The notes beneath the pieces are model-generated. The model ran no database searches. It saw only the letters and a list, made by a program, of their open reading frames with translations, and was not told the DNA's origin. Made by a program: the position numbers and the translations under genes. Positions 2 to 17,979 of a DNA stretch of 57,279 bases are shown here, in pieces (positions within the stretch are counted from its first letter, which is position 1; every line of letters starts with the position of its first letter). This DNA comes from a virus (lineage: Duplodnaviria; Caudoviricetes): positions 1 through 57,279 of IMG/VR virus record IMGVR_UViG_3300021963_006667; one strand, 5' to 3'.

Positions 2-2893
2 ACCATCAACGACGGTGCGGTGTATGTAAAGACGAGCGCATGGTTTACCGGTTCAACGACAGACATTCTCGGAACAACTGCGATCGTCACGTCAAACACG
101 ACCTTTACATCCAGCACGATGTTTGCTAACGTCGACTTGATCACGCTTGGCGCAAACGCATCCGATAGTCTTGTAGTCAACTCAATCGCCGACTTCAACT
201 CAAACACAAACGTTGATGGTATCCTTACCGTTACGGCCAACGCTGCATTCACGGGTACAAACACAACCTTTACCGCTATCGAAGCTACTGGTGAAATCAG
301 ACTCAAGGGTGCAGCAGCAAGAGTATTGAAGACTCAGAGCACTAGTGCAACTCTATACGACCTTCAAGTCGTACTTGCAAACACCGCAGGTTCGGTAACA
401 CCTCTTGTCGTTAACTCAACCGGTATTCTTCCAGGTGTTACTACGACGTTCGACATCGGTGGAACTTCATCACGTTGGAACAAAGGTTGGGTCAAAGATC
501 TTGACGTTGCGAACAGCGCAGTCATTACGAACCAACTATCAGTTTCCGGTAACGTTTCCTTCACGGGTGCTAACACGACCGTGACTGACCTTGAAGCTAC
601 CGGCGAGATCAGACTCAAGGGTTCTTCTGCTGAGACCATTAGAATTCAAAGTACTACCTCATCTCAACAGTCGCTTAACGTTGTGTTGACGAGTAACGCT
701 GCCGTAAGTATTACACCTCTTACGGTGAATTCGACTGGCATTATTCCAGGAGCCTCCGTAACGTTTGATCTTGGCGGAACATCCGCCCGTTGGAATAAAC
801 TTTGGGTAAAAGACATTGACGTTTCCTCCACAAGCGGTGTCGGTGTAAACCTGAGCGCTAACGTCGTTATTGGCAGAGACTTAAGCGTTTCTGGAAACCT
901 AGTTGTCTCTGGAACGACCACGCTTTCAAGCAACGTTGTACTTCAGGTCGCAGAATCAACATTTGCAAATAGCACCGTAACAAATCTATTCACTTTGGGT
1001 GCAGCGGCAAGGTTGAACTCTGATATTCTTCCGCAAACGACAACGACATACAACTTGGGTTCTACGACCCTGAGATATAGTAATGTATGGGCTTCAACGT
1101 TTACCGGCGCGCTTACAGGTAACGCGACTACTGCAACGACCCTTGAAACCGCAAGAACTATTAATGGCGTATCTTTCAATGGCTCGGCAAATATTACTGT
1201 AACAGCTAATACCACAAACACTCTTACACGCGGAACGTACCTAACCGGTTCAAACTTCAACGGCTCTGCTGCTACTACGTGGGCAGTCGATGCGACAGAT
1301 ACTAATACGGCTTCAAAGGTTGTTGTTCGCGATACAAACGGAAGTTTCTCGGCCAACGCGATCACGGCAACAACTATTACTGCGAACCTAACTGGTGCGG
1401 TAACCGGTAACGCAAGTACTGCGACGACACTTCAGACTGCAAGAACTATCAATGGTGTTTCTTTCAACGGTTCTGCGAACATCACGGTCACAGCAAACAC
1501 AAACGCTACCCTCACGAGAGGAACATATTTAACTGGTTCTGACTTCGATGGCAGTACCGCAAGAACTTGGTCAGTAGATGCTGATCCTGCGGCTACGGCT
1601 TCCAAGGTTGTTGCAAGAGATTCATCTTCTAACTTCGCTGCGAATACCATCACGGCTGCTCTATCTGGTAATGCAACCACTGCGACTACGCTCCAGACAG
1701 CAAGAACAATTAATGGTGTTTCTTTTAACGGTTCTGGTAACATCACCGTTACGGCAAATACTAACTCTACACTTACACGCGGAACGTATCTAACGGGTTC
1801 GAATTTTGACGGCTCTACTGCTACAACTTGGGCCGTTGATGCAACGACTACCGCAACCGCTTCGAAGATCGTGGCTAGAGATAGTCTTGGAAACTTTGCG
1901 GCTAATACTATCACGGCTGATTTGTCGGGTAATGCCTCAACAGCAACAACATTGGAAACTGCAAGAACTATTAATGGCGTCTCATTCAACGGTTCAGGTA
2001 ACATTACAATTGCTGCTAGTACCACAAACACTCTTACAAGAGGAGGGTATCTTACTGGTACTAACTTTAACGGATCCGCCGCCACAACATGGGCGGTCGA
2101 CGCCGATAGTGCTGCTACCGCTTCAAAGGTAGTTGCCCGTGACGCGTCTGCGAACTTTGCGGCAAACACCATCACGGCTACACTATTCTCAGGCTCTGGT
2201 GTATCGCTTACCTCTCTTAACGGCTCAAACATTTCTTCTGGTACCGTGGCTGACGCAAGAATTGCTACAACCCTAGTACGGACGTCTACCGCATTAACCG
2301 CTGGTGAAGGCATATCCGGCGGTGGCGACTTAAGCGCAAGTCGTCAGTTTGATGTTGATGCTACGGTTGTTCGTACCGCTAACACTCAGACGATTACCGG
2401 TGTAACCACGATGTCTAACCTTAGACTCAGCGGTGCCATGTTACCTACAGTAAACAATACCACTAACCTCGGTGCTGCAGGGAACGTATATCTTGCTGCT
2501 TACGCTACAACCTTCTACGGTACTGCAACATCTGCACAGTACGCCGACCTTGCAGAAAAATATCTTGCAGATGATGTGTACGACGTTGGCACTGTTATCG
2601 CAGTAGGCGGTGTGGCAGAAGTTACTGCGGCAAGTATCGACAACGCATCAGCGGTTCTTGGGGTAGTATCGGATAAACCTGCTTATCTCATGAACAGTGA
2701 ACTTGTTAGCGGTACCGCTATCGCACTGAAGGGACGTGTTCCAGTTAAGGTTACGGGCGAAGTGAAAAAGGGTGACAGACTTGCTCCTTCAACAACACCT
2801 GGTTATGCATGGGTAGACAACACAAGGGGTGCGTGGTCCTTTGCAATTGCGCTTGAAAATGGAAACAACATGGTAGAGGCTGTTATCCTCTAA
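2..2893 (+). CDS. Long tail-fibre-like protein with internal repeats and a C-terminal intramolecular chaperone/autoprocessing-type domain (5'-truncated)
   Basis: The frame is open from position 2, so the true start lies outside the window. The protein is Thr/Ala/Ser/Gly-rich with tandem repeats. The C-terminal YADLAEKY..D..Y..GTV..GG..EVT and ALKGRVPVKV.G.VKKGD.L motifs are typical of phage fibre chaperone domains. Confidence 0.8.
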   Translation, partial: TINDGAVYVKTSAWFTGSTTDILGTTAIVTSNTTFTSSTMFANVDLITLGANASDSLVVNSIADFNSNTNVDGILTVTANAAFTGTNTTFTAIEATGEIRLKGAAARVLKTQSTSATLYDLQVVLANTAGSVTPLVVNSTGILPGVTTTFDIGGTSSRWNKGWVKDLDVANSAVITNQLSVSGNVSFTGANTTVTDLEATGEIRLKGSSAETIRIQSTTSSQQSLNVVLTSNAAVSITPLTVNSTGIIPGASVTFDLGGTSARWNKLWVKDIDVSSTSGVGVNLSANVVIGRDLSVSGNLVVSGTTTLSSNVVLQVAESTFANSTVTNLFTLGAAARLNSDILPQTTTTYNLGSTTLRYSNVWASTFTGALTGNATTATTLETARTINGVSFNGSANITVTANTTNTLTRGTYLTGSNFNGSAATTWAVDATDTNTASKVVVRDTNGSFSANAITATTITANLTGAVTGNASTATTLQTARTINGVSFNGSANITVTANTNATLTRGTYLTGSDFDGSTARTWSVDADPAATASKVVARDSSSNFAANTITAALSGNATTATTLQTARTINGVSFNGSGNITVTANTNSTLTRGTYLTGSNFDGSTATTWAVDATTTATASKIVARDSLGNFAANTITADLSGNASTATTLETARTINGVSFNGSGNITIAASTTNTLTRGGYLTGTNFNGSAATTWAVDADSAATASKVVARDASANFAANTITATLFSGSGVSLTSLNGSNISSGTVADARIATTLVRTSTALTAGEGISGGGDLSASRQFDVDATVVRTANTQTITGVTTMSNLRLSGAMLPTVNNTTNLGAAGNVYLAAYATTFYGTATSAQYADLAEKYLADDVYDVGTVIAVGGVAEVTAASIDNASAVLGVVSDKPAYLMNSELVSGTAIALKGRVPVKVTGEVKKGDRLAPSTTPGYAWVDNTRGAWSFAIALENGNNMVEAVIL
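1115..2180 (+). repeat. Four tandem ~87-96 aa coding repeats (GNATTATTLxTARTINGVSFNGSxNIT...ASKVVxRDxxxxFxANxITA)
   Basis: Units begin near 1115, 1403, 1664 and 1925 (periods 288, 261 and 261 bp), with diverged synonymous sites. A separate pair of ~100 aa repeats (EATGEIRLKG...GGTSxRWNKxWVKD) lies at about 240-830. Confidence 0.9.
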
Positions 2894-2901
2894 GGAACAT
2901 T

Positions 2902-4920
2902 ATGAACGTTGTTTATGTGAACTACACTGTAAGAGACAGCGTATTTGATTATGCATGGCTCTCATTTAAAACCTACGTCGAAGATCACTATAAAGGCACG
3001 GCGAATTGGCATTGGCATTATCCAATCAGCGATTCCCGTGCCGATAGTCCAGAAGAACTAGCACAGAGAATATTACGACTTGACCCAAAGGTTGTGATGT
3101 TCTCTGTTTATGTTTGGAACGTCGGACTATCAAGAGAAGTTGCTCGAATCATCAAATCGCTTAGTCCCGAAATACACCTCGTATTTGGTGGCCCATACTG
3201 TGAGTACAAAGAAGATCCTGAGTACTTCACAAAATACCCATACATAGACTTCACTTGCCAGACGGACGGATACGGAGAACCTTTCATCAACGAGTTCCTC
3301 TATCAGGTAGAGACGGATCAAGACTGGAACAAGGTACCATACATGGTTCGAAAGGAAGGATACAGTCCTGTAACTTTCAACAAGCGTCAGTTTGAATGGC
3401 CGAAGAGAATCTTTGAGCGCAACTCTGACTACCTTCAAAAGGTAAAGGACGAACGCACCGGTTCCATCACCCTCATGACGATCTATGAGACGCAGCGCGG
3501 ATGCCCATACGGATGCACGTTCTGTGAATGGAGTGGCGGTATCAACTCAAAGGTTGCGTTTAAGCCAAGCGAAGATGTGATCGAAGACTTCACATGGCTC
3601 GCTAAAAACGGTTTCCTTGAGGACCTGCACATGGTAGAAGCAAACCTTGGCCAACTCGACAGGGACGTGATGCTCGTCGAGGAGTTGTGTAAGATCAAGG
3701 CAGAGTATGGAGTACCGAGAGACGTTATCCTTGCAGGACTCAGCAAGTCAAAGAAGTCAAACGTATATAAGATCGACAGACTTCTGGCTGCATCAGGACT
3801 TTCTAACGGATTCAAAATCTCGATGCAGGACATGGATCCACAGGTACTCAAGAACATCGAACGCGTGGACGAACCTTGGGAAAAGCAGTTCAAGGCATAC
3901 AACGAACTACGTGACGAGTTCGGAATCAAGCTAAGAGCCGAGATGATTCGTGGACTTCCTGGCACCACGCTCAATAGTTTCTATGAGCAGGCCGGAGAGA
4001 TGGCAAAGCACGGAGTTTTCTGGGATAAATACACGTGGCATCTTCTGCCTACGTCTCCTGCATCAAACCCTGAATACATGCAGAAGTTTAGCATCGAGGC
4101 GATAGACCTGATGACCGACTCAATGAAGGGTTCTGCATTCAACGCAAAGATGATCGACGAAGACAAGTTCACGGAGATCGGCGGACTCATCAACGATCAG
4201 AGATTCATTCAGCCGTCAAAGATAGTCGTATCCACCATGTCGTATACAAAAGAAGACTACGCCGAGATGGTCGTTTCGGACGGGATCATATTTGCCATGG
4301 AGACCGAGGGCTATCTGTCCAGGATAACAAAGTATCTCGACTCGAACGGGGTGCCACATTCGGTATTTTACAAAAGGTTCTATGATACCTTCATAGACCA
4401 GAAGTATCTTCAGCCTATCCAATTTACTGTGCTTAAAGCAATTATACAGCAGGCGTTGGACAAAGTACATCAAAAAAGCGCGGCTCCCTTCGAATACTAC
4501 AAACTCGAAGGGTTGCCATGGAACATCTACGCAAAGATCCCAACACTTATCAACATCATGATCAACGTCAACCGGGTTGAGTTCTACACCTCGATTCTTA
4601 GGTGGATCGTCGATGAGTTTGGAAGCGATCCTAAGTTGGATGACCTGATCGGTTGGTCCATGAATTCCGTGAAGTGGATAGACTACGACCCAACGAAACC
4701 GACCTCGTTCGTAACACAGTTTGACTGGACTGCGAATGAGTTGGTTGAAGGAACCTATATCAACACACCTTCAGACACACTCTACTCGAATGAAAACATG
4801 GACATCGATTGGCACCTATTGACGATGGAAAATCGAGTGAAGCAGTATTTTATTCGGCTATGCGCATTGCATGGTAGTAACAAGATGTTTGAGCATTTGA
4901 GGGTTACCCATGCTGAATAA
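2902..4920 (+). CDS. Cobalamin (B12)-binding radical SAM enzyme (class B methylase-like)
   Basis: N-terminal VMFSVYVWN...LVFGGP resembles a B12-binding domain. It has ETQRGCPYGCTFC (CxxxCxxC) and later IRGLPG and LLPTSP motifs. Confidence 0.85.
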   Translation: MNVVYVNYTVRDSVFDYAWLSFKTYVEDHYKGTANWHWHYPISDSRADSPEELAQRILRLDPKVVMFSVYVWNVGLSREVARIIKSLSPEIHLVFGGPYCEYKEDPEYFTKYPYIDFTCQTDGYGEPFINEFLYQVETDQDWNKVPYMVRKEGYSPVTFNKRQFEWPKRIFERNSDYLQKVKDERTGSITLMTIYETQRGCPYGCTFCEWSGGINSKVAFKPSEDVIEDFTWLAKNGFLEDLHMVEANLGQLDRDVMLVEELCKIKAEYGVPRDVILAGLSKSKKSNVYKIDRLLAASGLSNGFKISMQDMDPQVLKNIERVDEPWEKQFKAYNELRDEFGIKLRAEMIRGLPGTTLNSFYEQAGEMAKHGVFWDKYTWHLLPTSPASNPEYMQKFSIEAIDLMTDSMKGSAFNAKMIDEDKFTEIGGLINDQRFIQPSKIVVSTMSYTKEDYAEMVVSDGIIFAMETEGYLSRITKYLDSNGVPHSVFYKRFYDTFIDQKYLQPIQFTVLKAIIQQALDKVHQKSAAPFEYYKLEGLPWNIYAKIPTLINIMINVNRVEFYTSILRWIVDEFGSDPKLDDLIGWSMNSVKWIDYDPTKPTSFVTQFDWTANELVEGTYINTPSDTLYSNENMDIDWHLLTMENRVKQYFIRLCALHGSNKMFEHLRVTHAE

Positions 4921-5479
4921 GATTGTATTAGCGATGAATATAGAGGTCAACGAGGTCTATGATATTAGAAAGCGAACCAACGGCAGATTAAGTAACGCTT
5001 TTGTCGAGTATTGCATCGAAGACTCGTATGTCCGAGAGCGTGCACTCAAGAATCTTGTCGCAAATAAAGTCGATCGTAAGGTTGTTGAAGCGTTCAAGGT
5101 TTTAGACCTACAAACAGTATTTTCTTCCGTTCCAGATGACGAGTTAGTTGACTTTTTTGAGAAGATGTGTTATAAGATAAACGATATGATCTATATTAAG
5201 TTTGAGGCTGACACGTTTAAGGGATTCGATCTTCACGGAAAGATTGTATTGCCAGTAGTCTATTCTGGTAATCGTCCGGTTACCAAACATAAGTACATTG
5301 GATGGGTGACTCCTCATAACATCGAACACCTGTTAGAGCATGAGAAGATCACGGAAGACGTTGCAACCAAGGTGCAACTAAAATACGCAGAGATGCTACG
5401 TAAACATAAAGACGAATTCGACGTATTTTTTGACGGCTCTCCTATAGAGGAAGTTTTGGAGTATATCAACAATGATTAA
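4910..5479 (+). CDS. Hypothetical protein in the radical SAM cluster
   Basis: 189 aa ORF overlapping both neighbours by 8-11 nt; no motif recognised. Confidence 0.7.
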   Translation: MLNKIVLAMNIEVNEVYDIRKRTNGRLSNAFVEYCIEDSYVRERALKNLVANKVDRKVVEAFKVLDLQTVFSSVPDDELVDFFEKMCYKINDMIYIKFEADTFKGFDLHGKIVLPVVYSGNRPVTKHKYIGWVTPHNIEHLLEHEKITEDVATKVQLKYAEMLRKHKDEFDVFFDGSPIEEVLEYINND

Positions 5480-6485
5480 TTGGGCATTCACTTGGTCTTC
5501 ACGTAGAGCACCTGCGTGGGAAAACTGCAACGACGCAATGAACCTTGCCGTTGGACCTGAGTGGGTCTTTGGTGACTACTACCTACCGGTAAACACTCGG
5601 TATTCCGGCTCTCCTCTGAAGGAGTTTAAGGACGATGAGCGCATAAAACTTCTTAACGCACCGGCAGTAGATCAGTTCGAGGCGGAAACGTTCAAGTACG
5701 TCATAGAAGAGAATAGGTCTGGATACAACCTAGAGGTAGCCGATCGTGTAGGACATTTGATCCTTAAGGAACACGCGACTCCAGACATTTTACTCACCGA
5801 ACAAAATAGTCGTGTCATAGACCTGGACGAGGTTTACAAATACCTTCAGGAATATGATTGGGTCGCACTCGGAATCAAATTCAACAACATCGAGATCAGC
5901 GACAAGACGATCATGGCGAAGTCGTTCTTCTATGCCCGCGATAAGGATCTGAAGTTGGTAAACCTGTCAGGTCAGAATCAACCTTACAACGACGTCTCAT
6001 CGATCCCTGCTATAACGTATTGTGTGTTTAAGAAGACGAAGAACGTGGGTCTGGTCAACTGCATTGTAAACCCACACCTTGTTTCCGTTCCGCATATGGA
6101 TTCTAGGGTGTATGGAGATAAGCATCACGTGTTCGCACTCGACGCGTTTGACTCGACGATCGAGGACTACTTTCTTAAACCTACCATCGTTGGAAGCGAC
6201 ACTAACATCATCAACAACAACGTGATATTCACGAACGTGCAGTTCCAAATGTTGGAATATGAGGCGTCATTTTACCACATCCGTAATAAGTCGTACATAC
6301 CCTTTCCGAGAACGATTAAAACAAATTTAGGTGTAACTACGATCGGAAACGTGATAAGTATAAACCCAACTCGCCATTACGGGTACATATCCATAGAATA
6401 CGACGTTGACTCTATGATAAATAGCTATGGAGTTGCCTCTCAGGTAGGCAAACACAAAATTGAATACACCGTAATTAGAGGATAA
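5472..6485 (+). CDS. Hypothetical protein in the radical SAM cluster
   Basis: 337 aa ORF coupled to its neighbours; no motif recognised. Confidence 0.7.
   Translation: MINWAFTWSSRRAPAWENCNDAMNLAVGPEWVFGDYYLPVNTRYSGSPLKEFKDDERIKLLNAPAVDQFEAETFKYVIEENRSGYNLEVADRVGHLILKEHATPDILLTEQNSRVIDLDEVYKYLQEYDWVALGIKFNNIEISDKTIMAKSFFYARDKDLKLVNLSGQNQPYNDVSSIPAITYCVFKKTKNVGLVNCIVNPHLVSVPHMDSRVYGDKHHVFALDAFDSTIEDYFLKPTIVGSDTNIINNNVIFTNVQFQMLEYEASFYHIRNKSYIPFPRTIKTNLGVTTIGNVISINPTRHYGYISIEYDVDSMINSYGVASQVGKHKIEYTVIRG
6416..6423 (+). promoter_or_regulatory. Possible variant late promoter (GATAAATA) upstream of the 64 aa HxH/Cys peptide gene
   Basis: One mismatch to TATAAATA, ending 67 nt before the ATG at 6491. 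Confidence 0.35.
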
Positions 6486-6490
6486 CTATC

Positions 6491-6685
6491 ATGGTTGCCG
6501 ACGTAACAAGCACCTTTACAGCGAATAATACGGTCACCCCGACGAAGGCAGTAGGTTCAACCATCGATGCCGCTTCCTTTAGAACGATGGTGAACACGCT
6601 CGACGCGCTGATTCAACACAGTCATACGTTCACCGATGACTACACCTCAAACTGCCAGTGCAACTGTCAGCGAGGCAGCATCTAA
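6491..6685 (+). CDS. 64 aa HxH-motif protein with C-terminal CxCxC; candidate radical SAM substrate (precursor-like)
   Basis: Preceded by the RBS GAGGA. Ends HSHTFTDDYTSNCQCNCQRGSI and abuts the SPASM enzyme gene with no gap. Confidence 0.75.
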   Translation: MVADVTSTFTANNTVTPTKAVGSTIDAASFRTMVNTLDALIQHSHTFTDDYTSNCQCNCQRGSI

Positions 6686-8335
6686 GTGACCGACAATTAT
6701 GTGAACGTGAAAAGAGTTCTAAGCGAAGCTCAAAAGAAACGCTTAGAAAACCATACACCGTCTGTTGTCGAACAGGATGGTAAATTAGTCACAACCTTTG
6801 AGACGATAAACATCTCAGGTAAGGGACAAAAGACAAACAAACTCATCACGGTCCTTCCCGCAGCGCAGGAACAGGCTGTACCGTTTGCGGATGCAGAGTT
6901 TTTGTATCGTGACCTGATACAGGTTAACGCGATGTTAACGAACGCGTGTAACCTCAGTTGCTCCTACTGCTACGAACAACACAACAAAGACTTCGGTAGA
7001 TTTACAAAAGAATCCCTTAAGCAAGTCTATGATTGGATGAACTCCCGTAACAACGGTAAGAAGAAGGTGTTCCAATTTTTTGGAGGTGAACCTCTCATCC
7101 ACAAGCCTTTGATCAAAGAGTTTATCGAGACTTATGACGAAGAGTTGTCGGGCAACTACAAAGATTATCGTGGCACCTACATTTCGATGTGTACAAATGG
7201 ACTTCTATTAAATGACGAGTTCATCGAGTTCTATTTCGGTAAGCCATACACGCACATGATGTTGAGTCTCGATACGCTGAATTCAGCAATCGATCACAGA
7301 GAGATCACGCCGGCTCAGTTAAACAAGGTTCTCAAGAGTATAGACAAGATCGTGGAAGTTCTTGGAGATGACGCGAATCGACTCGTGATTCGTGCCACCC
7401 TGTCACAAGAGACCTCGCGTGACATGAAGAACTTCATCGAGACGCTGTATGAGCATGGTGTTAGAAACATGGTTGTTCATCCACTTGTACTCGACTCAAA
7501 GCATGGTTACATCTCATGGAAAGATGAGAACTGGCAGAACATGAGAAGTTCTATCTTCGGTGCCCTTGAGAAGTATGATGACCTTTACATCAGATTCTCT
7601 GAAGGCGTTGGCCTGAAGGAAGATAGTAACTGTATGGTCGGTTCACACATGGTTGCCATCGACGCATCCGGTGACTTCTCGGGTTGCTACTTCTTCACCA
7701 ACCAGAAGTCTAACGGTGCAGACATTGCCGTTCTCGGAAACGTATTCCAGGACCGAGTATACATAGATCGGTACAAGAAGTTCCAAAGCGCCTATCAGGA
7801 GATGTTCGATACCGAGGAGCAGTGCAGAACCTGTGACTATCAGGATGCCTGTTATCAGTGTCCTGCCGGTAACATGGATACCGGATCGAGAATCTTCCGG
7901 CCTGACGATATGTGTCAAAAGATCGTAAAGCTCTACGTCGACTTTCAACACGACGTCGCAAAGAAACTATTCATGCGTCACGTGAAGAAGAGATTCGACC
8001 GAGTTGAAAAGCACGGTGAAAAGGTATTTGCCGCCGAGTTGCAATACTTTTATGATAAATTTAATGGAGAAGGTGTCGATGATTTTGAACATTATTTGCG
8101 GATTGATTTGCCTCATTATTCTGATGTCATTCGTGCCTGGTCCGTGGACGGCAAAACCGAAGCCACCGATCTACATTCGCTCTACAACATCCTCGCAAAA
8201 AGATTCGACAAGCCAAGAATCGATATTGAAATCACATCTGACTTCGTAAAGTGTTATTACATCCAATGCATATCGACGATCATCTTCGACAAGAACAGAA
8301 TGAACGAAGTCAAACTTACGACTTTGCTGGAATAA
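6686..8335 (+). CDS. Radical SAM/SPASM-domain protein
   Basis: CNLSCSYC, FFGGEPL and TNG motifs; SPASM-type cysteines CMVG...GC...CRTCDYQDACYQCPAG...C; N- and C-terminal extensions. Confidence 0.9.
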   Translation: MTDNYVNVKRVLSEAQKKRLENHTPSVVEQDGKLVTTFETINISGKGQKTNKLITVLPAAQEQAVPFADAEFLYRDLIQVNAMLTNACNLSCSYCYEQHNKDFGRFTKESLKQVYDWMNSRNNGKKKVFQFFGGEPLIHKPLIKEFIETYDEELSGNYKDYRGTYISMCTNGLLLNDEFIEFYFGKPYTHMMLSLDTLNSAIDHREITPAQLNKVLKSIDKIVEVLGDDANRLVIRATLSQETSRDMKNFIETLYEHGVRNMVVHPLVLDSKHGYISWKDENWQNMRSSIFGALEKYDDLYIRFSEGVGLKEDSNCMVGSHMVAIDASGDFSGCYFFTNQKSNGADIAVLGNVFQDRVYIDRYKKFQSAYQEMFDTEEQCRTCDYQDACYQCPAGNMDTGSRIFRPDDMCQKIVKLYVDFQHDVAKKLFMRHVKKRFDRVEKHGEKVFAAELQYFYDKFNGEGVDDFEHYLRIDLPHYSDVIRAWSVDGKTEATDLHSLYNILAKRFDKPRIDIEITSDFVKCYYIQCISTIIFDKNRMNEVKLTTLLE

Positions 8336-9369
8336 GATCTGTTACGATCTATCTTGGCGATACCTGTAACTTTGATTGCGTCTATTGCGACCGTGCATAT
8401 ATTAAGCACGACATTGGTTCACAGAATCTAAACAAGGCAGACTTCGACGACATCATAGAGTTTATGAAGGTCGTAAAGGAACAGGCGAAAGACCTAAAGG
8501 CAATCTCGTTCCATGGCGGTGAACCGTTCTTGTATGTAAAAAGAATGGACGAACTACTTGACGCGCTTGATCCGATCTTCGGAAAAGACATGGAGTACTA
8601 CATCACATCGAACGGTTCGAAGATCGTCGAGAACGAATGGTTCTTTCAGAAGTGGCCAAAGATCCATATCACCCTGAGCTACGACTTTAATTATCAGCTT
8701 GTCAATAGGGAATATGTAGACCTAAAAGCAATCTCGGAAGTGATCTATCGTAACGACTGCTACATGATGTTTCAGTTCGTGATTCCACCAGATGGGTTCC
8801 ATGAGGATACTTTAGCCGAGGTGATCAGATCGTGTAAACTTGCTCGTTGTGATACGATTAACATCATTCCGCTTCGACACCATCGTGGTGCAAGAAAGTT
8901 CAAAGTCCTTATTGACGATTTTAACATGAAGTGGTATAGTGTTTATTTGATGCGGTTCATCCATACTTTGTATGTCCAGGGAATCACGCTCAACATAGAT
9001 GGCAACTATCACGGAATCGACAAGCAATATCTCAACAATCACAGCAAGATGATCCTGAGTCCGGATGGATACGTGTATCCAGAGTTTGACTACCTTGAAT
9101 ATAAGCGAAAGGAATTCAGGATCGGCAAGTGGAAGGGTGGAATCGAACTCGACCGAGTCAAGGACGAGAACCAATTCATTCTTCCAGGTTGCGTGACCTG
9201 CCACATGAGGGACGCGTGCGGGTTGAAGTACCTATACAAGATGTTTGATGAAGAACCGAAAGGAAACTGCGTCGACTTCTACACAACGATCAACCTGATG
9301 GTGAAACACCTTCACGCCTTGAAACAGAAGCCCACGTTGATGCATTGGATTGGAATCGGAGATGGATGA
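8266..9369 (+). CDS. Radical SAM protein with a partial SPASM-like C-terminus
   Basis: CNFDCVYC, FHGGEPF and TSNG motifs; C-terminal CVTCHMRDAC...C. The start is ATG 8266 or GTG 8251, overlapping the upstream gene. Confidence 0.85.
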   Translation: MHIDDHLRQEQNERSQTYDFAGIRSVTIYLGDTCNFDCVYCDRAYIKHDIGSQNLNKADFDDIIEFMKVVKEQAKDLKAISFHGGEPFLYVKRMDELLDALDPIFGKDMEYYITSNGSKIVENEWFFQKWPKIHITLSYDFNYQLVNREYVDLKAISEVIYRNDCYMMFQFVIPPDGFHEDTLAEVIRSCKLARCDTINIIPLRHHRGARKFKVLIDDFNMKWYSVYLMRFIHTLYVQGITLNIDGNYHGIDKQYLNNHSKMILSPDGYVYPEFDYLEYKRKEFRIGKWKGGIELDRVKDENQFILPGCVTCHMRDACGLKYLYKMFDEEPKGNCVDFYTTINLMVKHLHALKQKPTLMHWIGIGDG

Positions 9370-9871
9370 TCTGTACAAAGCTGCGTGCAGGGTGAAGACC
9401 ATCATGCCGATGAAGTATTACGACTGGAAGCAGTGGCACGAATGGCCGTATCGAACGATCGGTGACCATATCGTCCATGACGAAACCATCATCGATGTCG
9501 GTGCCGGCTGTGGGTTCTTGAGCATGCACCTTCTTATGACCGGTAAGTGTGACAAGGTTATTGCGTACGATACCCGCGAGAACATGTGCGAGTTTATGTC
9601 GTTGCTAAGTAATACGTTGGGTCTGGCCACACGCCTTGAAGTAAGGTGCGAACCGTTTCAAAGTAACCGACACGACAACTTGACCGTCTCGACCAGACTC
9701 GGGTTTTCAAACCTGCTACTCAATAACAAGGCTCAGACTATAACTATGGCTCGTACGAGAGAGTGCGAACCTATCATGAGATACGTCGAAACTCCAGATG
9801 ATTGGAACGAGAAGGTCGTTACGAGAGATGATGGATTTACTATGAGGTTGTTATGGAACTATCGAGAATAA
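9362..9871 (+). CDS. Class I SAM-dependent methyltransferase
   Basis: IIDVGAGCGFLS motif I followed by VIAYD. ATG 9362 overlaps the end of the upstream gene. Confidence 0.75.
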   Translation: MDDLYKAACRVKTIMPMKYYDWKQWHEWPYRTIGDHIVHDETIIDVGAGCGFLSMHLLMTGKCDKVIAYDTRENMCEFMSLLSNTLGLATRLEVRCEPFQSNRHDNLTVSTRLGFSNLLLNNKAQTITMARTRECEPIMRYVETPDDWNEKVVTRDDGFTMRLLWNYRE

Positions 9872-10224
9872 TTCTACTCTATAACGATGAATTCGAGATC
9901 CCACTCGAAACCGTTTACGGAGTGGTGTACATGGTTCCAGGATTAACGAAGCAGTTTCCCTGGTGGATTCGTCGGTTCTGTATTGAAGGCTATGACTATA
10001 ATAGTCCAGACTTTGAAGTCGTAGGAACAGGAGTTTCATCCGTAGTCGGGACACCATTAACGGAGAAGGCACACGAGTATCGTAAATCGATCTTCGGCCA
10101 ACGATGGATCGAAGATCTTAACTATGAGATCGTCTCAACCTTTCCTCCGCTTAGAGGGGTTAGCGTTCAGGGAGACGACTACACTCTTGATTCGGATTTA
10201 ATGAGGATACTACAGAATGTCTGA
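9853..10224 (+). CDS. Hypothetical protein
   Basis: 123 aa ORF overlapping both neighbours within the operon. Confidence 0.6.
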   Translation: MELSRIILLYNDEFEIPLETVYGVVYMVPGLTKQFPWWIRRFCIEGYDYNSPDFEVVGTGVSSVVGTPLTEKAHEYRKSIFGQRWIEDLNYEIVSTFPPLRGVSVQGDDYTLDSDLMRILQNV

Positions 10225-11353
10225 TGAGGGCGAAGAGTTCCGTAAGTTTAAAGACCACAATACGTACTTTGTGACAGAAGACGCGTTGATGCCACTGCAT
10301 CATGATATAACGTTTAGCCCGACTCGTAAATACTATTGTGGCGCAAATTGTCAAGTTTGTTACATCAAGAAGAAACTAAAGGCACATCTACCGTATTACG
10401 CCGAAGCCATACCCGAAAAGATCACGGTCGAAGACGAAAAGAGATGGTTCGAGATTTTTGAATACTTCTACGTGATTCGAGTAGTCGATGACCTGAAGTT
10501 TTTGAAGGAACACTATCCTCACATCTATGGATGGTACAAAGAACACGCCTCGATCTTTGAGTACGGTATGACTGACAACGCGATCGTTCAGCAGCATGAA
10601 ACTCTCATGGAGTTGGACATGAAGAGTTTGTCCGAGGTCGCTCTGAGCGAAGAGTTCATGAACAAGGTAAACTCGAAGAAGAACTACAACAGGGTGATGG
10701 AGATCCTTCAGAGTTACATCGACAAATACGACCTACACAAGATCAAGGTAATCAAGACTACAAACGAAGAGTTACCTTATCATGCGAGGGAGTTGGTCGA
10801 GTGGATCAACAATAAAGGAATCGTTACGTCTCTGCATAATGACTATCGTAAAACCAATGTAGATGACAACGAACTTGGTAACATTGACCATGACTTAGCC
10901 GGACTCTTCGACTATCAGAATAGTCACGTCCTATGTTACAACGACCGAACATATCAGGTCTATCGTGGATCGTTGCACTTATACGGAGATCGATTCTTCT
11001 ATAGTATCGATGATGCCACCGATATTAACTGGGAACCGTTTCATACTATGAATGGCGACTTTGACCATCAGAAGTTTATGGTCGATATGATCCAAGGCAA
11101 GTTCGATCTGTACTCAAAGTTTGCCGATGAGTTGAAAAATGCTGGAGGTGGTACCGCCGAAAAATTTCGAAGCTACTATATAAATACTACTGACAGCTTT
11201 ATGGTGAACGGCGACTTCAACTTCATACCCAAGATCATGTTAAGTGAAAACTCGAAATACTACAACAAACTGGTAGAGCTTGGGTATCGTCCAACTGAGG
11301 TTGGGTTGTACCTACCTGGAAGCTCACCCAAACCAATCATCGGATTTAGGTAA
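10217..11353 (+). CDS. Divergent radical SAM-like protein
   Basis: N-terminal YYCGANCQVCY (CxxxCxxC) in the usual position; no GGEP motif and no SPASM cysteines. Confidence 0.6.
   Translation: MSDEGEEFRKFKDHNTYFVTEDALMPLHHDITFSPTRKYYCGANCQVCYIKKKLKAHLPYYAEAIPEKITVEDEKRWFEIFEYFYVIRVVDDLKFLKEHYPHIYGWYKEHASIFEYGMTDNAIVQQHETLMELDMKSLSEVALSEEFMNKVNSKKNYNRVMEILQSYIDKYDLHKIKVIKTTNEELPYHARELVEWINNKGIVTSLHNDYRKTNVDDNELGNIDHDLAGLFDYQNSHVLCYNDRTYQVYRGSLHLYGDRFFYSIDDATDINWEPFHTMNGDFDHQKFMVDMIQGKFDLYSKFADELKNAGGGTAEKFRSYYINTTDSFMVNGDFNFIPKIMLSENSKYYNKLVELGYRPTEVGLYLPGSSPKPIIGFR
11179..11186 (+). promoter_or_regulatory. T4-type late promoter TATAAATA upstream of the 123 aa HxH protein gene
   Basis: Exact consensus inside the 3' end of the upstream gene, about 170 nt before ATG 11359. 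Confidence 0.6.
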
Positions 11354-11358
11354 AGACA

Positions 11359-11730
11359 ATGGCATCATATTCAAATACGACATCGGTTGCTGTCGCGACA
11401 TCGCTAAGAACAACATATACAACACCGTTGTTGGCGCAAATTGCAAGTGGTAATACCGTGCAAGCGGCGCATATGACCATGCTTAAAAACTTTGCAAATG
11501 CGATCTTGGTTCATACGCATACGTTAACGGATTACTCACAAATTAAAGAATTTGGTAATACTAATGCTAGTGCGTTTACGGTTGATACTGTTCCCCAAGT
11601 ACCAAGCGCTAACGTCGGTGCAACATACACTGCTGGAAACGTAATCGGCGCGAACGAATACACCGAAATTAGAGTAGCTGTTGAAGCTCTAAGAGTACAC
11701 AGCCATACATGGGATGATGCAATAGTATGA
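11359..11730 (+). CDS. 123 aa protein made of two HxH-motif modules homologous to the 64 aa peptide; candidate substrate or virion protein
   Basis: Contains the HTHTLTD and HSHTWDD modules. It is Thr/Ala-rich, and its stop overlaps the next start (ATGA). Confidence 0.75.
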   Translation: MASYSNTTSVAVATSLRTTYTTPLLAQIASGNTVQAAHMTMLKNFANAILVHTHTLTDYSQIKEFGNTNASAFTVDTVPQVPSANVGATYTAGNVIGANEYTEIRVAVEALRVHSHTWDDAIV

Positions 11731-13001
11731 TGCAACTACCTTGTTATGAACTCAGTGATGGTAGTTCGTTTTATTATGACTCTCACTCAAATACTATTTA
11801 CAACACAGAAGGCGAGCAATTAAGTTTGCCGCCTTCAAAAGCTATTGAATACTACGAATTAGAAGCAGCAAACCATGGGGTGGATTATAAGGTCAACAAC
11901 CCGTTTGCGATTCGTATCCTTCTCGGACATGCGTGTAACTACAACTGCACCTATTGCATGCAGAAAGATATTGGTAATCCGTTAGAGAGACCACAATCGA
12001 TTTATACCGAATCGTTTATTGCTAACATCAAGAAGAATCTAAACCTTGATAGGTTGAACAGAATTGAACTTTGGGGTGGAGAACCTTTCCTATATTGGAA
12101 AGACATGGTCGAGATCATGAAGTTCTTTGATTCTCCCAATAGAGAGTTCTTCATATCAACAAATGGTTCGGCATTTGTACAAAAACACGTTGACTTTTTC
12201 CAAACGTTGAAATCTACAATCTTAATCAGCTGTAGTCATGACGCTGTAGGCCAAAAAGAACTTCGTGGTGACGACATCCTTGAGAACCCAAAGAAGGTCG
12301 ACATCATTAAGAAGATGTTGGCTCTTCCGAATGTACAACTAGGGTTCTCGTCGGTGGTTAGCAATCAGAACCACGACCTATATGCAATCAACGACTACTT
12401 CAAGGAATTCTGTGACCGTGAAGGAATCGAGAACATGAAGATCACCTTCATCCCGGCAAAAAACTATGACGTTCATGACACAGAGATGGCTTCGTCGAAC
12501 TACATTCTGCGTGGTGAAAAGTTGAAAGCGTTCGCTCAACACCTATACGACTTCACACAAGATTCGTTCAACGATCGTACAAGATTCCTACGCAACAACA
12601 TCCTGTACTCGCCCGAGGGTGTGGTGGACTACGCTAAATTCCTGAGACAACAGACTCCGATCACGACCAAGTCTGGCTGTGGTGCAGACTCAAACGACGT
12701 TTTATCGGTTGACATTCAAGGAAACGTTCGCTTATGCCCGCACACCGATAGTAGCTTCATTGCTGGTAAGCTGGAAGATGTAGGTTCGGTAAAGATCAAA
12801 GGCATGGATCTTGCTCGTAAGAAGACTCACTGCATGAAGTGTCCGGTGAAACGACTCTGCAGATCGTCATGCCCTATCAAGTTTCCAGACCACGTGTTCT
12901 ACTCTAACTGCGCACTCGAGAAGGTCTGGTGGGGAAACATCCAACTTCACGCATTTAAATTATTATTCGGACAAACCGTGTCCATGAAAGAGGCAGCATG
13001 A
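11727..13001 (+). CDS. Radical SAM/SPASM-domain protein
   Basis: CNYNCTYC, LWGGEPF and STNG motifs; SPASM cysteines CGAD...LCPH...CMKCPVKRLCRSSCP...C. Confidence 0.9.
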   Translation: MMQLPCYELSDGSSFYYDSHSNTIYNTEGEQLSLPPSKAIEYYELEAANHGVDYKVNNPFAIRILLGHACNYNCTYCMQKDIGNPLERPQSIYTESFIANIKKNLNLDRLNRIELWGGEPFLYWKDMVEIMKFFDSPNREFFISTNGSAFVQKHVDFFQTLKSTILISCSHDAVGQKELRGDDILENPKKVDIIKKMLALPNVQLGFSSVVSNQNHDLYAINDYFKEFCDREGIENMKITFIPAKNYDVHDTEMASSNYILRGEKLKAFAQHLYDFTQDSFNDRTRFLRNNILYSPEGVVDYAKFLRQQTPITTKSGCGADSNDVLSVDIQGNVRLCPHTDSSFIAGKLEDVGSVKIKGMDLARKKTHCMKCPVKRLCRSSCPIKFPDHVFYSNCALEKVWWGNIQLHAFKLLFGQTVSMKEAA

Positions 13002-13744
13002 AACTTAACAAATCACTCATCGAAGAGCATACGTCGATGCTACGCAACCACTCGTTGCTCGTGACCAACAACATCCAAAGCAAAGACGACCTTCGAATCT
13101 TTATGGAACATCACGTGTTCGCCGTCTGGGACTTCATGTCTTTGTTGAAGACTTTGCAAAACGAAGTCGTTCCAAGCAAGACCCCGTGGATGCCCACCCG
13201 TGGGACACGTTCCGACATTGCAAGGATGATTAACGAGATCGTGACCGGTGAAGAGTCTGACATCGCACCAGGCGGAGGATCGATCAGTCACTTCGACCTA
13301 TATCTTCAGGCGATGCTTGAGGTGAATGCAGACACAAGTTCTATTACATCATTTTTGAAGAACCTAGAATGGTCTGGCACCATTCCATACCAACTTGCAC
13401 CAAAACCGGCAGAGAAGTTTATGCGAAACACGTTTGGTACCATTAATCGTGGACCGCACTGTGTTGCTGCTTCGTTTGCATATGGCAGAGAAACCATCAT
13501 TCCTGATATGTTCACTCGACTATTAACCCAACTCAATATCAGTCAACTTGATGCGCCAAAGTTTCATTATTACCTGCAGAGACACATTGAGGTCGACGGT
13601 GATGAACACGGTCCAATGTCTGAGCATCTCGTTGAATATTTCTGTGACGACGATCCTATTAAGGTTCACGAAGCCGAACAATCAGCGATTGCAGCCATCA
13701 AAGCACGTATTGACTTCTTCAACGACATAGAAAAGCTCCTGTAG
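12998..13744 (+). CDS. DUF3050 family heme-oxygenase-like (putative diiron) protein
   Basis: MEHHVFAVWDFMSLLK, INEIVxGEESD, SHFDLYLxAM, FAYGRE and YLQRHIEVDGDEHGP motifs. Confidence 0.85.
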   Translation: MKLNKSLIEEHTSMLRNHSLLVTNNIQSKDDLRIFMEHHVFAVWDFMSLLKTLQNEVVPSKTPWMPTRGTRSDIARMINEIVTGEESDIAPGGGSISHFDLYLQAMLEVNADTSSITSFLKNLEWSGTIPYQLAPKPAEKFMRNTFGTINRGPHCVAASFAYGRETIIPDMFTRLLTQLNISQLDAPKFHYYLQRHIEVDGDEHGPMSEHLVEYFCDDDPIKVHEAEQSAIAAIKARIDFFNDIEKLL

Positions 13745-13752
13745 ACGATTCT

Positions 13753-13760
13753 TATAAATA
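13753..13760 (+). promoter_or_regulatory. T4-type late promoter TATAAATA
   Basis: Exact consensus in the intergenic gap, followed by the AAGGAG RBS. Confidence 0.85.
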
Positions 13761-13785: not shown

Positions 13786-14118
13786 ATGGCTATTAAAGCG
13801 AATTTAGTTATCGATCAGGGCACTTCTTTTAGTGCTACAGTTGACGTAACAGATACTGGTGGTGCGGCTTATAACCTTACCGGATACACTACCGCTGCTC
13901 AAATGCGTAAGAATTATAACTCTTCAAGCGCCGTAACTTTCTCAACTTCACACAACGGTGCATATGGTCAAATCACGTTATCGCTCAACGCCGCTAATAC
14001 AGCGGTTCTTGAGCCTGGACGTTACCTATACGACGTTGAGATTACGTCTGGAAGTGCTATCGTTACTCGAGTCGTCGAAGGAATCGTAACTGTTACACCT
14101 GGAATGACGAGAATCTAA
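13786..14118 (+). CDS. Virion structural protein (baseplate/fibre-attachment-like)
   Basis: ANLVIDQGTSF...AQMRK...GRYLYDVEI...RVVEGIVTVTP, a pattern common in T4-like phage structural regions; late promoter upstream. Confidence 0.7.
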   Translation: MAIKANLVIDQGTSFSATVDVTDTGGAAYNLTGYTTAAQMRKNYNSSSAVTFSTSHNGAYGQITLSLNAANTAVLEPGRYLYDVEITSGSAIVTRVVEGIVTVTPGMTRI

Positions 14119-14119
14119 C

Positions 14120-14365
14120 ATGACTATAAAGGCCACAGTCACTCAAAATGGGAAAACAACTGCTAAGGTAACACCTCAGCAGAACATACTCGTAACTAAC
14201 TATCAGGTAAGTTCGAGTAATATCACCCTAAATGATCTAGTTGACGTTGAAGTAGGCAATCTTCAAGATGGCGCGCTATTATCATATAATCAAAATACTC
14301 AATCTTGGAAAGCTATTACCTCTATAGAGAATCCAAACACAGAAGTTAATGGAGGCTTCTTCTAA
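14120..14365 (+). CDS. Small virion-associated protein
   Basis: LNDLVDV...DGALLSYN...W motif typical of fibre repeats; coupled to the next gene. Confidence 0.65.
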   Translation: MTIKATVTQNGKTTAKVTPQQNILVTNYQVSSSNITLNDLVDVEVGNLQDGALLSYNQNTQSWKAITSIENPNTEVNGGFF

Positions 14366-17300: not shown

Positions 17301-17979
17301 CGGACAGTGGGGTGGTACAGGAGTCAACAACGCCGGTAAGACGATCACGCTTGGAGGAAACGTCTCTACGGGTGGCGATCTTACCACGGCCAATACCTTC
17401 ACGACCTCTGGCAACTTTGCCCTAACGTTGACTCAGACAGCGGCTACAAACGTTACGTTGCCTACAACCGGAACTCTCGCTACGCTTGCGGGAACTGAAA
17501 CGTTTACGAACAAGACCCTGACCCTACCAACGATTGGTGGTACAGGTGCTACGTTCAACGGTTCGACCTCTGGTACAACCGTTCTGAAAGCCTCTGCTGC
17601 TGCAGGTACTACAACAATCACAATGCCAGCCACGACTGGTACTATGGTCACGACCGGTGATACTGGAACCGTTACTTCGACCATGATCGCAAACGACACG
17701 ATCGTTAACGCAGACATCAACTCTGCGGCGGCGATTGCTATCACAAAGCTTGCGGCTTCCACAATCTCTGGTATCTCCCTCGGTAACAACCTTGGTACGC
17801 TTACCTTCGGAACGGGCCTTACTGCAGGTGGTGCAAGCTATAACGGATCGACAGGGGTTACGATAACCGCAGTGACCGCAAACAATACAACTCTGGGTAT
17901 TGCAAGCTTCGACGCGACCAACTTCACGGTAGCGACCGGGGCAGTAAGCATAAATACGATAGATGGTGGTACATACTAA
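14365..17979 (+). CDS. Long tail-fibre-like protein (1204 aa)
   Basis: N-terminal IRIKRS...LAQGEMGY; Thr/Gly-rich; internal duplicate TTRTLWGQNFNG...NNNVGIGNTxPADKLSV; ends IDGGTY. Confidence 0.8.
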   Translation: MSLIRIKRSGTSGSPSALAQGEMGYSFFAGTQSNGGDRLYIGTGTETGGVAANIETIGGKYFTAKLNHVPGVLTANAAIIVDASSKIDTLNISNITITGNTISTTATNATLILAPNGTGVIDVSGKRVINSAAPVANTDLVTLGHLNNTYTGVLNIAGDAGTDAISLTSETLLVTGGVGLSSAVTANTITVNLDNTTVTAGSYGAAGSVGTFTVDAQGRLTAAGATTISITSAQVNDATALATASRIVLRDASGNFAANTITAALAGNATTATTLATTRTLWGQNFNGGANVTGSLTSVGDITGTAGVTLTATAGTLALAATSTNVITLSTNATETLRISANNNVGIGNTTPADKLSVTGTSNFTGNMALGANVAITGTVTSGTWQGSIVQPTYGGTGKSTLPAAFAALSGFTTTATAAGTTVLSNTSTSYQIFTGATTQTITLPNTSTLATGWFFEIQNNSTGSLTINSSTAVNIVPATVAIAGTSVRVTCISIADNTAAAWDVEVVGFSSFTGTGAFARSLSPTITTPSITYSTSAAITAGTNAQGQGALTSDYNVVTTTTANPSGVTLPTGATGRVVTVVNRGTNPITIYPATGGVIDALTTNAAITLPVGRELTFKASSATQWYSTYNLSTGLADTATILATTRTLWGQNFNGSANVTGDLTSVGNITGTGAVIMTATGANPITFVTNSVETLRVSANNNVGIGNTAPADKLSVNGTAYFGAPVRMAANVQIDGTLTVGGSTTVINATNLSVSDNMIYLNNGSTATITGAVSNGTTFVYTAQNNYNTSMVVTVTGVNPSGFNVTGATVTAANSTSFTIANTSSPGAYVSGGSATAKTSAYPDLGIAGAYNDGTYAHAGIFRDATDGRWKFYHGYTPEPDASVFIDTANNSFTLSDVQASTFIGALTGNATTASSVNNSVTFNNGGSGAASGTTFNGSAAQTISYNTVGASPLAGSTSLTTLGTIATGTWNGSIIGGQWGGTGVNNAGKTITLGGNVSTGGDLTTANTFTTSGNFALTLTQTAATNVTLPTTGTLATLAGTETFTNKTLTLPTIGGTGATFNGSTSGTTVLKASAAAGTTTITMPATTGTMVTTGDTGTVTSTMIANDTIVNADINSAAAIAITKLAASTISGISLGNNLGTLTFGTGLTAGGASYNGSTGVTITAVTANNTTLGIASFDATNFTVATGAVSINTIDGGTY

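Follow-up and report, generated by a model that had tools for sequence, protein, structure and literature searches.

A radical SAM cassette in the tail-fibre module of a T4-like phage: a candidate maturation system for small HxH proteins

The window analysed here is the whole of IMG/VR record IMGVR_UViG_3300021963_006667, a stretch of 57,279 bases with an estimated completeness of 27%. Between tail-fibre genes it carries a cassette of 12 plus-strand open reading frames (ORFs) at positions 2902–13744, which encode radical S-adenosylmethionine (SAM) enzymes, a heme-oxygenase-like protein of the DUF3050 family, and two small related proteins with HxH motifs, s64 and s123b. With slightly better than even confidence, this cassette is read as a late-expressed system for the maturation, by crosslinking, methylation, or oxidation, of a small protein complex associated with the fibre. 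As a protein-maturation cassette, it would belong to the tail-fibre (host-recognition) module. The substrates would most likely be s64 and s123b, which are proposed to assemble 1:1 into a three-unit, pseudo-trimeric bundle that brings the three HxH motifs together and leaves the Cys tail of s64 free. The enzyme of 424 amino acids (aa) probably acts on this NCxCxC tail, most likely by forming thioether links from Cys to carbons of neighbouring Asn, Asp, Gln, or Glu residues, and the conserved HxHxFxDDY region is probably the target of the other three radical SAM enzymes and of the DUF3050 iron oxidase. In the lineage of the window, a B12 radical SAM methylase would have been added, and in the window alone a SAM methyltransferase. 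The product would be made late and remain on the virion, where it would form a cap, a tip, or an adhesin part of a neighbouring fibre.

Small HxH proteins and the cysteine tail

The candidate substrate s64 (6491–6685, plus strand), identified by sequence and conservation, has 64 aa and features one helix–HxH unit followed by the conserved tail HSHTFTDDYTSNCQCNCQRGSI. The tail pattern, NCxCxC...RGS, is near-invariant, and all 14 of the 14 aligned relatives keep residues H43, H45, F47, D49, Y51, C55, C57, C59, R61, and G62. Neither a hydrophobic N-terminus nor a Gly-Gly site can be read from the sequence of s64. A database search places at least 406 clusters at 90% identity in this family. Among the 120 clusters listed of these 406, every length falls between 63 and 77 aa, and the tails take two near-invariant forms, one like HNHIFYDDYNTVCECQCQCACSRGTL and the other like HxHTFTDDYTSNCQCNCxRGSI.

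The second small protein, s123b (11359–11730, plus strand), has 123 aa and features two helix–HxH units (VHTHTLTDY and VHSHTWDD), and the s64 profile matches both of its halves. Residues H52, H54, D58, H114, H116, and D120 are invariant in 14 of 14 relatives. In profile searches, each half of s123b matches the first 45–50 residues of s64 and the converse holds too, so that each locus holds three units, two in s123b and one in s64; the kinship of the two proteins, first claimed by a sequence-only reading of the window, is thereby borne out. The s123b family comprises 273 clusters at 50% identity, the HxH...D positions being the conserved ones. In a few relatives, whole domains stand between the units or behind them, namely a β-propeller (P0221), glycine-rich domains (P0238 and P0257), Hint domains (P0214 and P0243), and others, an arrangement that resembles the one seen in modular adhesins. 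By sequence, no solved structure matches s64 or s123b below E 0.5.

Modelling of the s64–s123b complex supports binding of the two proteins to each other. The model scores 0.62, 0.60, and 0.62, the best of three controls reaching 0.00; the partners have a predicted local distance difference test (pLDDT) score of at least 65, and at least 73% of the contacts agree between runs. In the calibration of the tool, 116 of 157 solved complexes attained the score mark, as did 2 of 215 mismatched pairs; these counts apply only roughly to this model because own alignments were used. The predicted interface is formed by residues 4–47 of s64 and residues 7–56 and 96–120 of s123b—the helix–HxH parts of all three units. 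The model brings H43/H45 of s64 together with H52/H54 and H114/H116 of s123b into a single interface, and the Cys tail of s64 lies outside of it. This fits a pseudo-trimeric bundle that gathers the three HxH motifs, much as trimeric fibres and spikes gather theirs around a metal ion.

The Cys tail and the 424-aa enzyme type also occur together in systems of other kinds. A profile of this enzyme type finds 557 viral stretches, and context classes were assigned to the best 80 of the 557 by a rough script, by which at least L023, L056, and L094 are mis-sorted. By these rough classes, a multi-enzyme cassette is present in 49 of these 80 loci, 37 of which have a 64-aa gene within the 6-kb flank; most multi-enzyme loci without this gene are cut by contig or flank ends. 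Weaker relatives of the 424-aa enzyme, each a single enzyme, are found in the Achromobacter siphovirus JWF and in Ralstonia phage RSP15 (Ackermannviridae), both in fibre modules. In the fibre protein JWF gp028 (L018:4655-6106), which has a shufflon-type region, a Hint domain comes straight after NCNCDCNCNCSC; the last residues of RSP15 gp048, a protein with the annotation of a side tail fibre, are NTNCQCGN. The loci L082–L099 have a single enzyme of the 424-aa type (27–30% identical). In 18 of these 18 loci, a plus-strand ORF just upstream of the enzyme ends in N-C-x-C-x-C(-x-C) or, in L094 and L099, carries the run before a Hint domain, and 20 of the 23 CxCxC ORFs found there in six frames lie just upstream of the enzyme. 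The true Cys-tail proteins of this group have 65–104 aa and start with MAYKVGTTIVIDD. The same loci also carry 2-oxoglutarate (2OG)-Fe(II) oxygenases as well as fibre genes with S74-type chaperone domains at their ends; in the metagenomic locus L098, the order is fibre, 65-aa Cys-tail protein, 304-aa protein, enzyme, fibre. The residues between the motif cysteines are mostly Asn, Asp, Gln, and Glu. These four are the acceptor residues of known thioether-forming SPASM enzymes.

A Hint domain stands directly after the Cys run or the HxH-unit protein in JWF gp028, L094:4331-5185, L099:3840-5183, P0214, and P0243. Hint domains are self-cleaving, and because they directly follow the motif, the mature protein end may arise by autoprocessing at this place. 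In a third context, seen at L051:5362-7837, L053:4044-5045, and L054:3970-5102, the 424-aa type (38–42% identical) has split glycine-rich proteins beside it. There, a first glycine-rich protein ends in a long Gly run, and a second begins with ...RLIACGAC..., after which Gly runs follow; the surroundings also include a 2OG oxygenase and a tail-fibre-assembly-like protein, and a CxCxC tail is absent from these three loci.

The 424-aa type is the most likely enzyme for the Cys tail because it is the sole element common to all Cys-tail systems, and the other three enzymes and DUF3050 may act on HxHxFxDDY because they are found only together with HxH units. A product bound to the virion is favoured over a free peptide because the Cys-alternating motif also stands on true fibre proteins, the linkage to fibre genes is constant across unrelated phages, relatives of s123b carry whole inserted domains, late-promoter words are present, and no export or protease genes were found in the cassette. 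The proposal of the sequence-only reading, a system that modifies virion proteins, is the best supported of the readings and gains partial support in these respects—fibre linkage, HxH small proteins, a Cys tail on fibre proteins, and the lack of export and protease genes among the 12—and the modification itself is kept as a proposal.

The main alternative, a free product, takes the form of a classical phage pathway for a peptide made by the ribosome and altered after translation (RiPP). Here, s64, and perhaps s123b, would be a precursor whose crosslinked core is released at lysis or by a host protease and acts in free form, for instance as an antimicrobial, as a metal chelator, or in host takeover, the location beside fibre genes being an accident of a variable region. 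This is judged unlikely, and it is kept alive because the 64-aa protein is precursor-like in form, being small and ending in a conserved core rich in Cys. RiPP clusters also typically combine several radical SAM/SPASM enzymes with a B12 methylase and an oxidase, the best enzyme matches are peptide maturases, and accessory tailoring genes come and go between relatives as they do in biosynthetic clusters; in addition, PMC7029224 describes the fibre region of pelagimyophages as highly variable. However, no leader protease, exporter, immunity gene, or PqqD-type recognition domain was found: Pfam, NCBIfam, and PHROGs give no RiPP recognition element, leader protease, or exporter at E up to 0.01 (three proteins being unassigned), and no recognition, protease, or exporter fold appears in two cassette models, those of the 337-aa and 378-aa proteins. 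The Cys motif occurs on long fibre proteins before a Hint domain as well, the linkage to fibre genes extends to unrelated phage lineages, and the whole domains inserted in s123b relatives are unlike a leader peptide.

Conservation and linkage to fibre genes

The 378-aa protein of the cassette was used as the marker for the locus search, which yielded 14 viral loci; one of these, L016, is that of the Ralstonia jumbo phage RP12. Among 185,579 species genomes, the marker is found at one locus, a 14.8-kb contig of a metagenome-assembled genome with fibre genes on its flanks, and it appears to be nearly phage-specific. Sixteen records were compared—the window, RP12, L003–L015, and L017. All 16 of the 16 share the core, which consists of the 337-aa protein, the 64-aa protein, the 549-, 372-, 378-, and 424-aa enzymes, DUF3050, and the 123-aa HxH protein; the sole exception is that L010 lacks the 424-aa enzyme and DUF3050, its contig ending there. 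The cassette is accompanied by HxH small proteins in all 16 and has tail or fibre genes as neighbours in each examined record, also in lineages of phages that are not related to the window. The synteny survey that had been suggested on the basis of the sequence thus links homologous cassettes to tail or fibre genes and HxH proteins throughout the 16 records. In RP12, which belongs to an unrelated lineage, the cassette comes after two proteins of tail and tail-fibre PHROG families, and the 65-aa counterpart of the 64-aa gene is without annotation. The RP12 copy of DUF3050 is annotated as MgoB-like, and ORF76, 77, 79, and 80 are placed under "other genes" in the main text of PMC5468394; neither this main text nor the GenBank record contains a statement on detection of the small proteins in virions. 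For pelagimyophages, PMC7029224 remarks on radical SAM cassettes in the host-recognition cluster.

The window itself features the gene set of a T4-like myovirus, comprising sheath, tube, portal, prohead protease, scaffold, major head protein, and terminase as assigned by PHROGs, together with a UvsY-like protein and a gp55-like late sigma factor. Its major head protein is 70% identical to those of the Sinorhizobium phages phiN3 and phiM12, and no DNA nearly identical to the window is found in the cultured-phage collection. The junctions between the 12 cassette ORFs are overlaps of 4–85 nt or gaps of 0–5 nt, in agreement with the tight coupling between two fibre blocks that the sequence-only reading had noted. 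The flanking genes match tail-fibre PHROGs. Upstream lies a 957-aa tail-fibre protein (20–2893, plus strand) assigned by PHROG tail-fibre families, and FibA-like ORFs occupy the upstream side of the cassette in L003–L015 and L017. Downstream lies a block of a 110-aa protein, an 81-aa protein, and a 1204-aa fibre (13786–17979, plus strand; phrog_3304/1084, phrog_13853, and phrog_15769), which comes after the cassette in most relatives as judged by synteny. Elsewhere in the window, two genes of the tail-tube family phrog_45 are present, one after the sheath gene (31321–31872) and one after the major head gene (39946–40437), and an 829-aa protein with weak matches to PHROGs of unknown function is encoded between the portal region and the prohead protease (34153–36642).

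The constant neighbourhood of large fibre genes also allows for another reading, in which the enzymes act on these flanking fibres or on a substrate that is not a protein, for example a sugar or a cofactor needed for fibre assembly, and the HxH proteins are unmodified metal-binding structural or chaperone parts. Solved structures of fibres and spikes show metal bound by HxH motifs, which would suit such a role, and the 378-aa and 372-aa enzymes match the small-molecule enzymes MoaA, viperin, and QueE in addition to maturases. Nevertheless, this reading is improbable: the small proteins stay constant between loci whose flanking fibres differ widely, the near-invariant Cys tail is found together with the 424-aa type in otherwise dissimilar systems, and no sugar- or nucleotide-handling family is found in the cassette by Pfam and NCBIfam.

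Enzymes and accessory genes of the cassette

The cassette ORFs were assigned to families by Pfam, NCBIfam, and PHROGs, which leave five of them (189, 337, 64, 123, and 123 aa) without a family and detect no transporter, protease, or immunity gene among the 12, in agreement with the sequence-only reading. The profile and structure searches proposed by the sequence-only reading find its inventory to be correct and confirm a fifth radical SAM fold; the methyltransferase alone is left with sub-threshold matches. The best matches of the cassette enzymes in NCBIfam, the PDB, and the structural search are peptide or protein maturases. The enzymes look intact, as judged by the invariance of the catalytic and cluster cysteines and of the DUF3050 metal ligands.

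The first gene encodes a 672-aa B12-binding radical SAM enzyme (2902–4920), which matches PF02310 with 36.5 bits (cut-off 32.1) and PF04055 with 34.4 bits (cut-off 29.5). It features the class B layout, with an N-terminal B12-binding domain followed by the radical SAM domain, and is likely a C-methyltransferase. The best NCBIfam model is KedN5 (NF033712), with 131.6 bits against a cut-off of 700, which places the enzyme outside that family. Its CxxxCxxC motif is invariant in 5 of 5 relatives, and no relative is found in the cultured-phage collection.

Three further enzymes bear the GGEP motif and SPASM-type cysteines that had been read from the sequence. The 549-aa enzyme (6686–8335) matches PF04055 with 68.2 bits (cut-off 29.5) and the SPASM model PF13186 with 25.2 bits (cut-off 21.5); CxxxCxxC, GGEP, and seven C-terminal cysteines are invariant in 12 of 12 relatives. 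The 372-aa enzyme (8251–9369) matches PF04055 with 40.9 bits (same cut-off), and C39, C43, C46, GGEP, C314, C317, C323, and C340 are invariant in 12 of 12; it is termed only twitch-like because it has four invariant C-terminal cysteines but no match to a SPASM model. The 424-aa enzyme (11727–13001) matches PF04055 with 46.2 bits and TIGR04085 with 27.2 bits against a cut-off of 27, that is, SPASM at the threshold, and the motif, GGEP/GGE, and six C-terminal cysteines are invariant in 11 of 11. In L004, the 549-aa and 424-aa genes are each split into two ORFs (L004:7322-8965 and L004:11516-12871), which could reflect decay of the cassette or assembly errors.

The 378-aa protein (10217–11353) belongs to phrog_36229, a family of unknown function, and has no Pfam match, no GGE motif, and no auxiliary cysteines. 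C41, C45, and C48 of its CxxxCxxC motif are invariant in 12 of 12 relatives. Its AlphaFold (AF2) model has a pLDDT of 84.7 and a predicted template modelling (pTM) score of 0.85. In a wide structural search, the top 16 rows are all radical SAM enzymes (Z 10.7 to 7.4), among them MoaA (Z 10.7), ChlB (10.0), SuiB (9.9), and SkfB (9.5); matches by Foldseek are weak. On the strength of this model, the divergent protein is the fifth radical SAM-fold member of the cassette and a putative enzyme.

The 549-aa enzyme resembles the thioether-forming ranthipeptide and sactipeptide maturases (PapB, PDB 5wgg) in its CxxxCxxC, GGEP, and SPASM cysteine set. PapB (NF047865) is its best NCBIfam model and PDB 5wgg matches it at 5e-14, yet the score of 114.6 bits lies below the cut-off of 340 and hence outside the family; the 424-aa enzyme reaches 44.8 bits with the same model. 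The candidate substrate s64 is comparable to PapB-type substrates in being Cys-rich, with Asp, Asn, Glu, or Gln beside the cysteines. The present system differs by having four such enzymes in one cassette of lytic-type phages, among fibre genes, and by lacking a recognisable recognition domain, protease, and exporter. To our knowledge, an alternating CxCxC after HxHxFxDDY is not a substrate motif of the ranthipeptide and sactipeptide families.

A second comparison is offered by QhpD, a radical SAM/SPASM enzyme that matures the small gamma subunit of quinohemoprotein amine dehydrogenase. This subunit is Cys-rich, is crosslinked to Asp/Glu carbons, and stays in a larger complex, and an oxidase modifies it further. 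The 549-aa enzyme matches the QhpD-type family model at E 2.1e-19, but with 69.6 bits against a cut-off of 453; the cassette lacks a dehydrogenase context, and its product would be a part of the virion. The His-Xaa-Ser system (HxsABCD) likewise pairs radical SAM enzymes with a protein of His-motif repeats. Its models are matched weakly (HxsB 68.6 against 370 bits, HxsC 30.4 against 267.9 bits), so the cassette falls outside these families; the HxH motif here follows a helix instead of forming HxS repeats, and the His-Xaa-Ser system is bacterial and not viral.

The last gene encodes the 248-aa DUF3050 protein (12998–13744), a clear member of the MgoB-type, heme-oxygenase-like family PF11251, as had been claimed (272.2 bits against a cut-off of 22.2, covering profile positions 3–233 of 233). 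H39, E80/E85/E86, H98, E165, H196, D200, and H204 are invariant in 11 of 11 relatives; this His/Glu/Asp set resembles the diiron site modelled for the DUF3050 family in PMC4520260. In Pseudomonas, MgoB is the DUF3050 protein of the mangotoxin mgo operon, which also contains a non-ribosomal peptide synthetase (PMC3298696); the cassette protein differs in sitting with radical SAM enzymes in a phage.

The pairing of SPASM enzymes with a heme-oxygenase-clan protein recalls the biosynthesis of pyrroloquinoline quinone (PQQ). A peptide-derived redox cofactor or a carrier of a metal cluster could be made if a SPASM enzyme linked an acidic residue to the Tyr of DDY and the heme-oxygenase-like protein completed the oxidation. 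PqqC shares the heme-oxygenase-like fold class, the F-x-D-D-Y motif is invariant, and PqqE is among the structural matches (Z 8.6). This scenario is nonetheless very improbable, as Pfam and NCBIfam reveal no PqqB, PqqD, or PqqF-like genes and no cofactor-using dehydrogenase, and it leaves the Cys tail, the three HxH units, and the fibre context unexplained.

The remaining genes are a methyltransferase candidate and proteins without a family. The 173-aa protein (9350–9871) is a probable SAM-dependent methyltransferase; the identification made from the sequence corresponds to a match to Methyltransf_18 with E 3.1e-5 and 24.5 bits, below the cut-off of 27. Together with the second 123-aa protein (9853–10224), for which Pfam, NCBIfam, and PHROGs give no family, it is found among the 16 records in the window only. 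Positions 9350–10224 form an insertion of approximately 850 nt; the enzymes on either side of it are direct neighbours in each of the 15 other records, including relatives with approximately 73–79% identical flanking proteins. The 189-aa protein (4910–5479), equally without a family in these three collections and without a usable match in an Atlas search, always accompanies the B12 enzyme (8 of 16 records). A rubrerythrin-like protein is present in 4 of 16 records; of the further accessory unknowns, one occurs in 6 and one in 2 of the 16. This rubrerythrin-like (diiron) protein of 262 aa (L010:4783-5571, and also in L011, L013, and L015) replaces the B12 enzyme and the 189-aa protein. It is found in 4 of the 7 loci (L009–L015) with a five-cysteine form of the 64-aa tail, and the B12 enzyme goes with the three-cysteine form.

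The 337-aa core protein (5472–6485), present in 16 of 16 records and directly upstream of the 64-aa gene in most, features a C-terminal immunoglobulin (Ig)-like sandwich. Its AF2 model has a pLDDT of 79.8 and a pTM of 0.83. The sole matches in the wide structural search are Ig-like and cover residues 229–337 (best Z 7.4); Foldseek gives nothing at E up to 0.001 and the Atlas search nothing usable. A kinship with the approximately 300-aa proteins beside single enzymes (JWF gp029, RSP15 gp047, and those of L082–L099) was considered and rejected, as hhalign and hmmsearch find no relation.

Timing, counterevidence, and significance

The T4 late-promoter word TATAAATA occurs 11 times in the window, all on the plus strand, against 1.18 expected; most copies fall in the gaps that precede the genes for sheath, tube, protease, scaffold, and head. 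A gp55-type late sigma factor (phrog_234, E 3.3e-59) is encoded at 42866–43450, so that the window holds, on the evidence of its sequence, the late sigma and the TATAAATA words before late genes that make up a T4-type late transcription unit. One TATAAATA lies inside the 378-aa gene, 173 nt before s123b (11179–11186, plus strand), and corresponds to the internal late promoter noted previously; a second lies in the gap after DUF3050 and before the next structural gene (13753–13760, plus strand). Approximately 70 nt before the s64 gene stands GATAAATA (6415–6422, plus strand), one mismatch from TATAAATA. At this place, approximately 75 nt before the 64-aa gene, L003–L005 carry an exact TATAAATA, and they carry another at the place matching 11179; in L017, the word lies 37 nt before the 123-aa gene. 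Terminator-like and sigma-70-like sites are at chance level (24 sigma-70-like sites found against 28.3 expected), in line with the earlier remark that the cassette lacks a sigma70-type promoter. These promoter-like words suggest late expression of the cassette.

The location in the structural late region, and not in a replication region, bears on another possibility—that the radical SAM enzymes hypermodify DNA or nucleotides, comparable to the hypermodified thymidine of phage M6. One radical SAM enzyme of phage origin that modifies DNA has been described (PMC8989533). That enzyme is spore-photoproduct-lyase-like and clusters with a kinase, an amino-acid transferase, and a pyridoxal phosphate (PLP) enzyme, and Pfam and NCBIfam find none of these three partners in the cassette. 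Owing to the missing partner genes and the structural-region location, this explanation is set aside as highly improbable.

Several points weigh against maturation of virion proteins as proposed here. An N-terminal recognition region joined to a C-terminal Cys-rich core is exactly the look of a classical RiPP precursor, and the presence of the small proteins in the virion and their modification are inferred. No longer protein matching the full s64 profile is found among 8000 candidates, so that a fusion of s64 itself to a fibre is not observed, although this evidence is weak. Approximately 13 of the best 80 loci have neither a multi-enzyme cassette nor a CxCxC ORF; most of these have, next to the enzyme, split glycine-rich proteins that bear a CGAC motif. 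The complex model could represent generic packing of paralogous helices, the synteny among T4-like loci may partly reflect common descent, and RP12 gp074 is annotated merely as hypothetical. The TATAAATA at 11179 lies in Y-I-N-T codons and could be due to chance. Finally, the 337-aa core protein has no place in the explanation and is left unexplained by it.

Among structural proteins of phages, HxH metal sites are known from trimeric fibres and spikes (T4-type and P2-type), and gp38-type adhesins cap the trimeric fibre tip. The small proteins resemble these sites in that HxH stands after a helix or strand, convergence of three motifs is predicted, and the genes lie in a fibre module; the inserted glycine-rich or other binding-type domains of s123b relatives are a likeness to fibre-capping adhesins. 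In contrast, the three motifs here come from two small chains and not from three copies of one, and no match of s64 or s123b to known fibre proteins was found by sequence or in the PDB. We know of no fibre HxH sites associated with radical SAM enzymes. Radical SAM/SPASM maturases are known for free peptides and a few cellular proteins. Literature searches found no paper that links radical SAM enzymes to tail-fibre modification; a cyanophage radical SAM gene mentioned in PMC12801897 is unrelated to the cassette. The kinds of enzymes are known, and their apparent recurrent use in phage fibre modules together with HxH-unit and Cys-tail proteins was not found described.

The system is common, with at least 406 s64 clusters (at 90% identity), 273 s123b clusters (at 50%), and 557 viral stretches carrying the enzyme type. 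A broader proposal, held with somewhat less than even confidence, is that many aquatic T4-like and jumbo phages build a hardened or functionalised, pseudo-trimeric two-chain cap with a six-histidine metal site and a cysteine ladder crosslinked by radical SAM chemistry at its end, and that the Cys tail and its SPASM enzyme represent a general and hitherto unrecognised means of finishing fibre tips in several phage families. If true, post-translational chemistry of the RiPP kind would be applied to virion proteins. If the product is a fibre part, receptor-binding tips matured by enzymes would form a new layer of host recognition, a new crosslinking chemistry would operate on a very simple motif, and the occurrence of radical SAM genes in the structural regions of phages would have a possible explanation.

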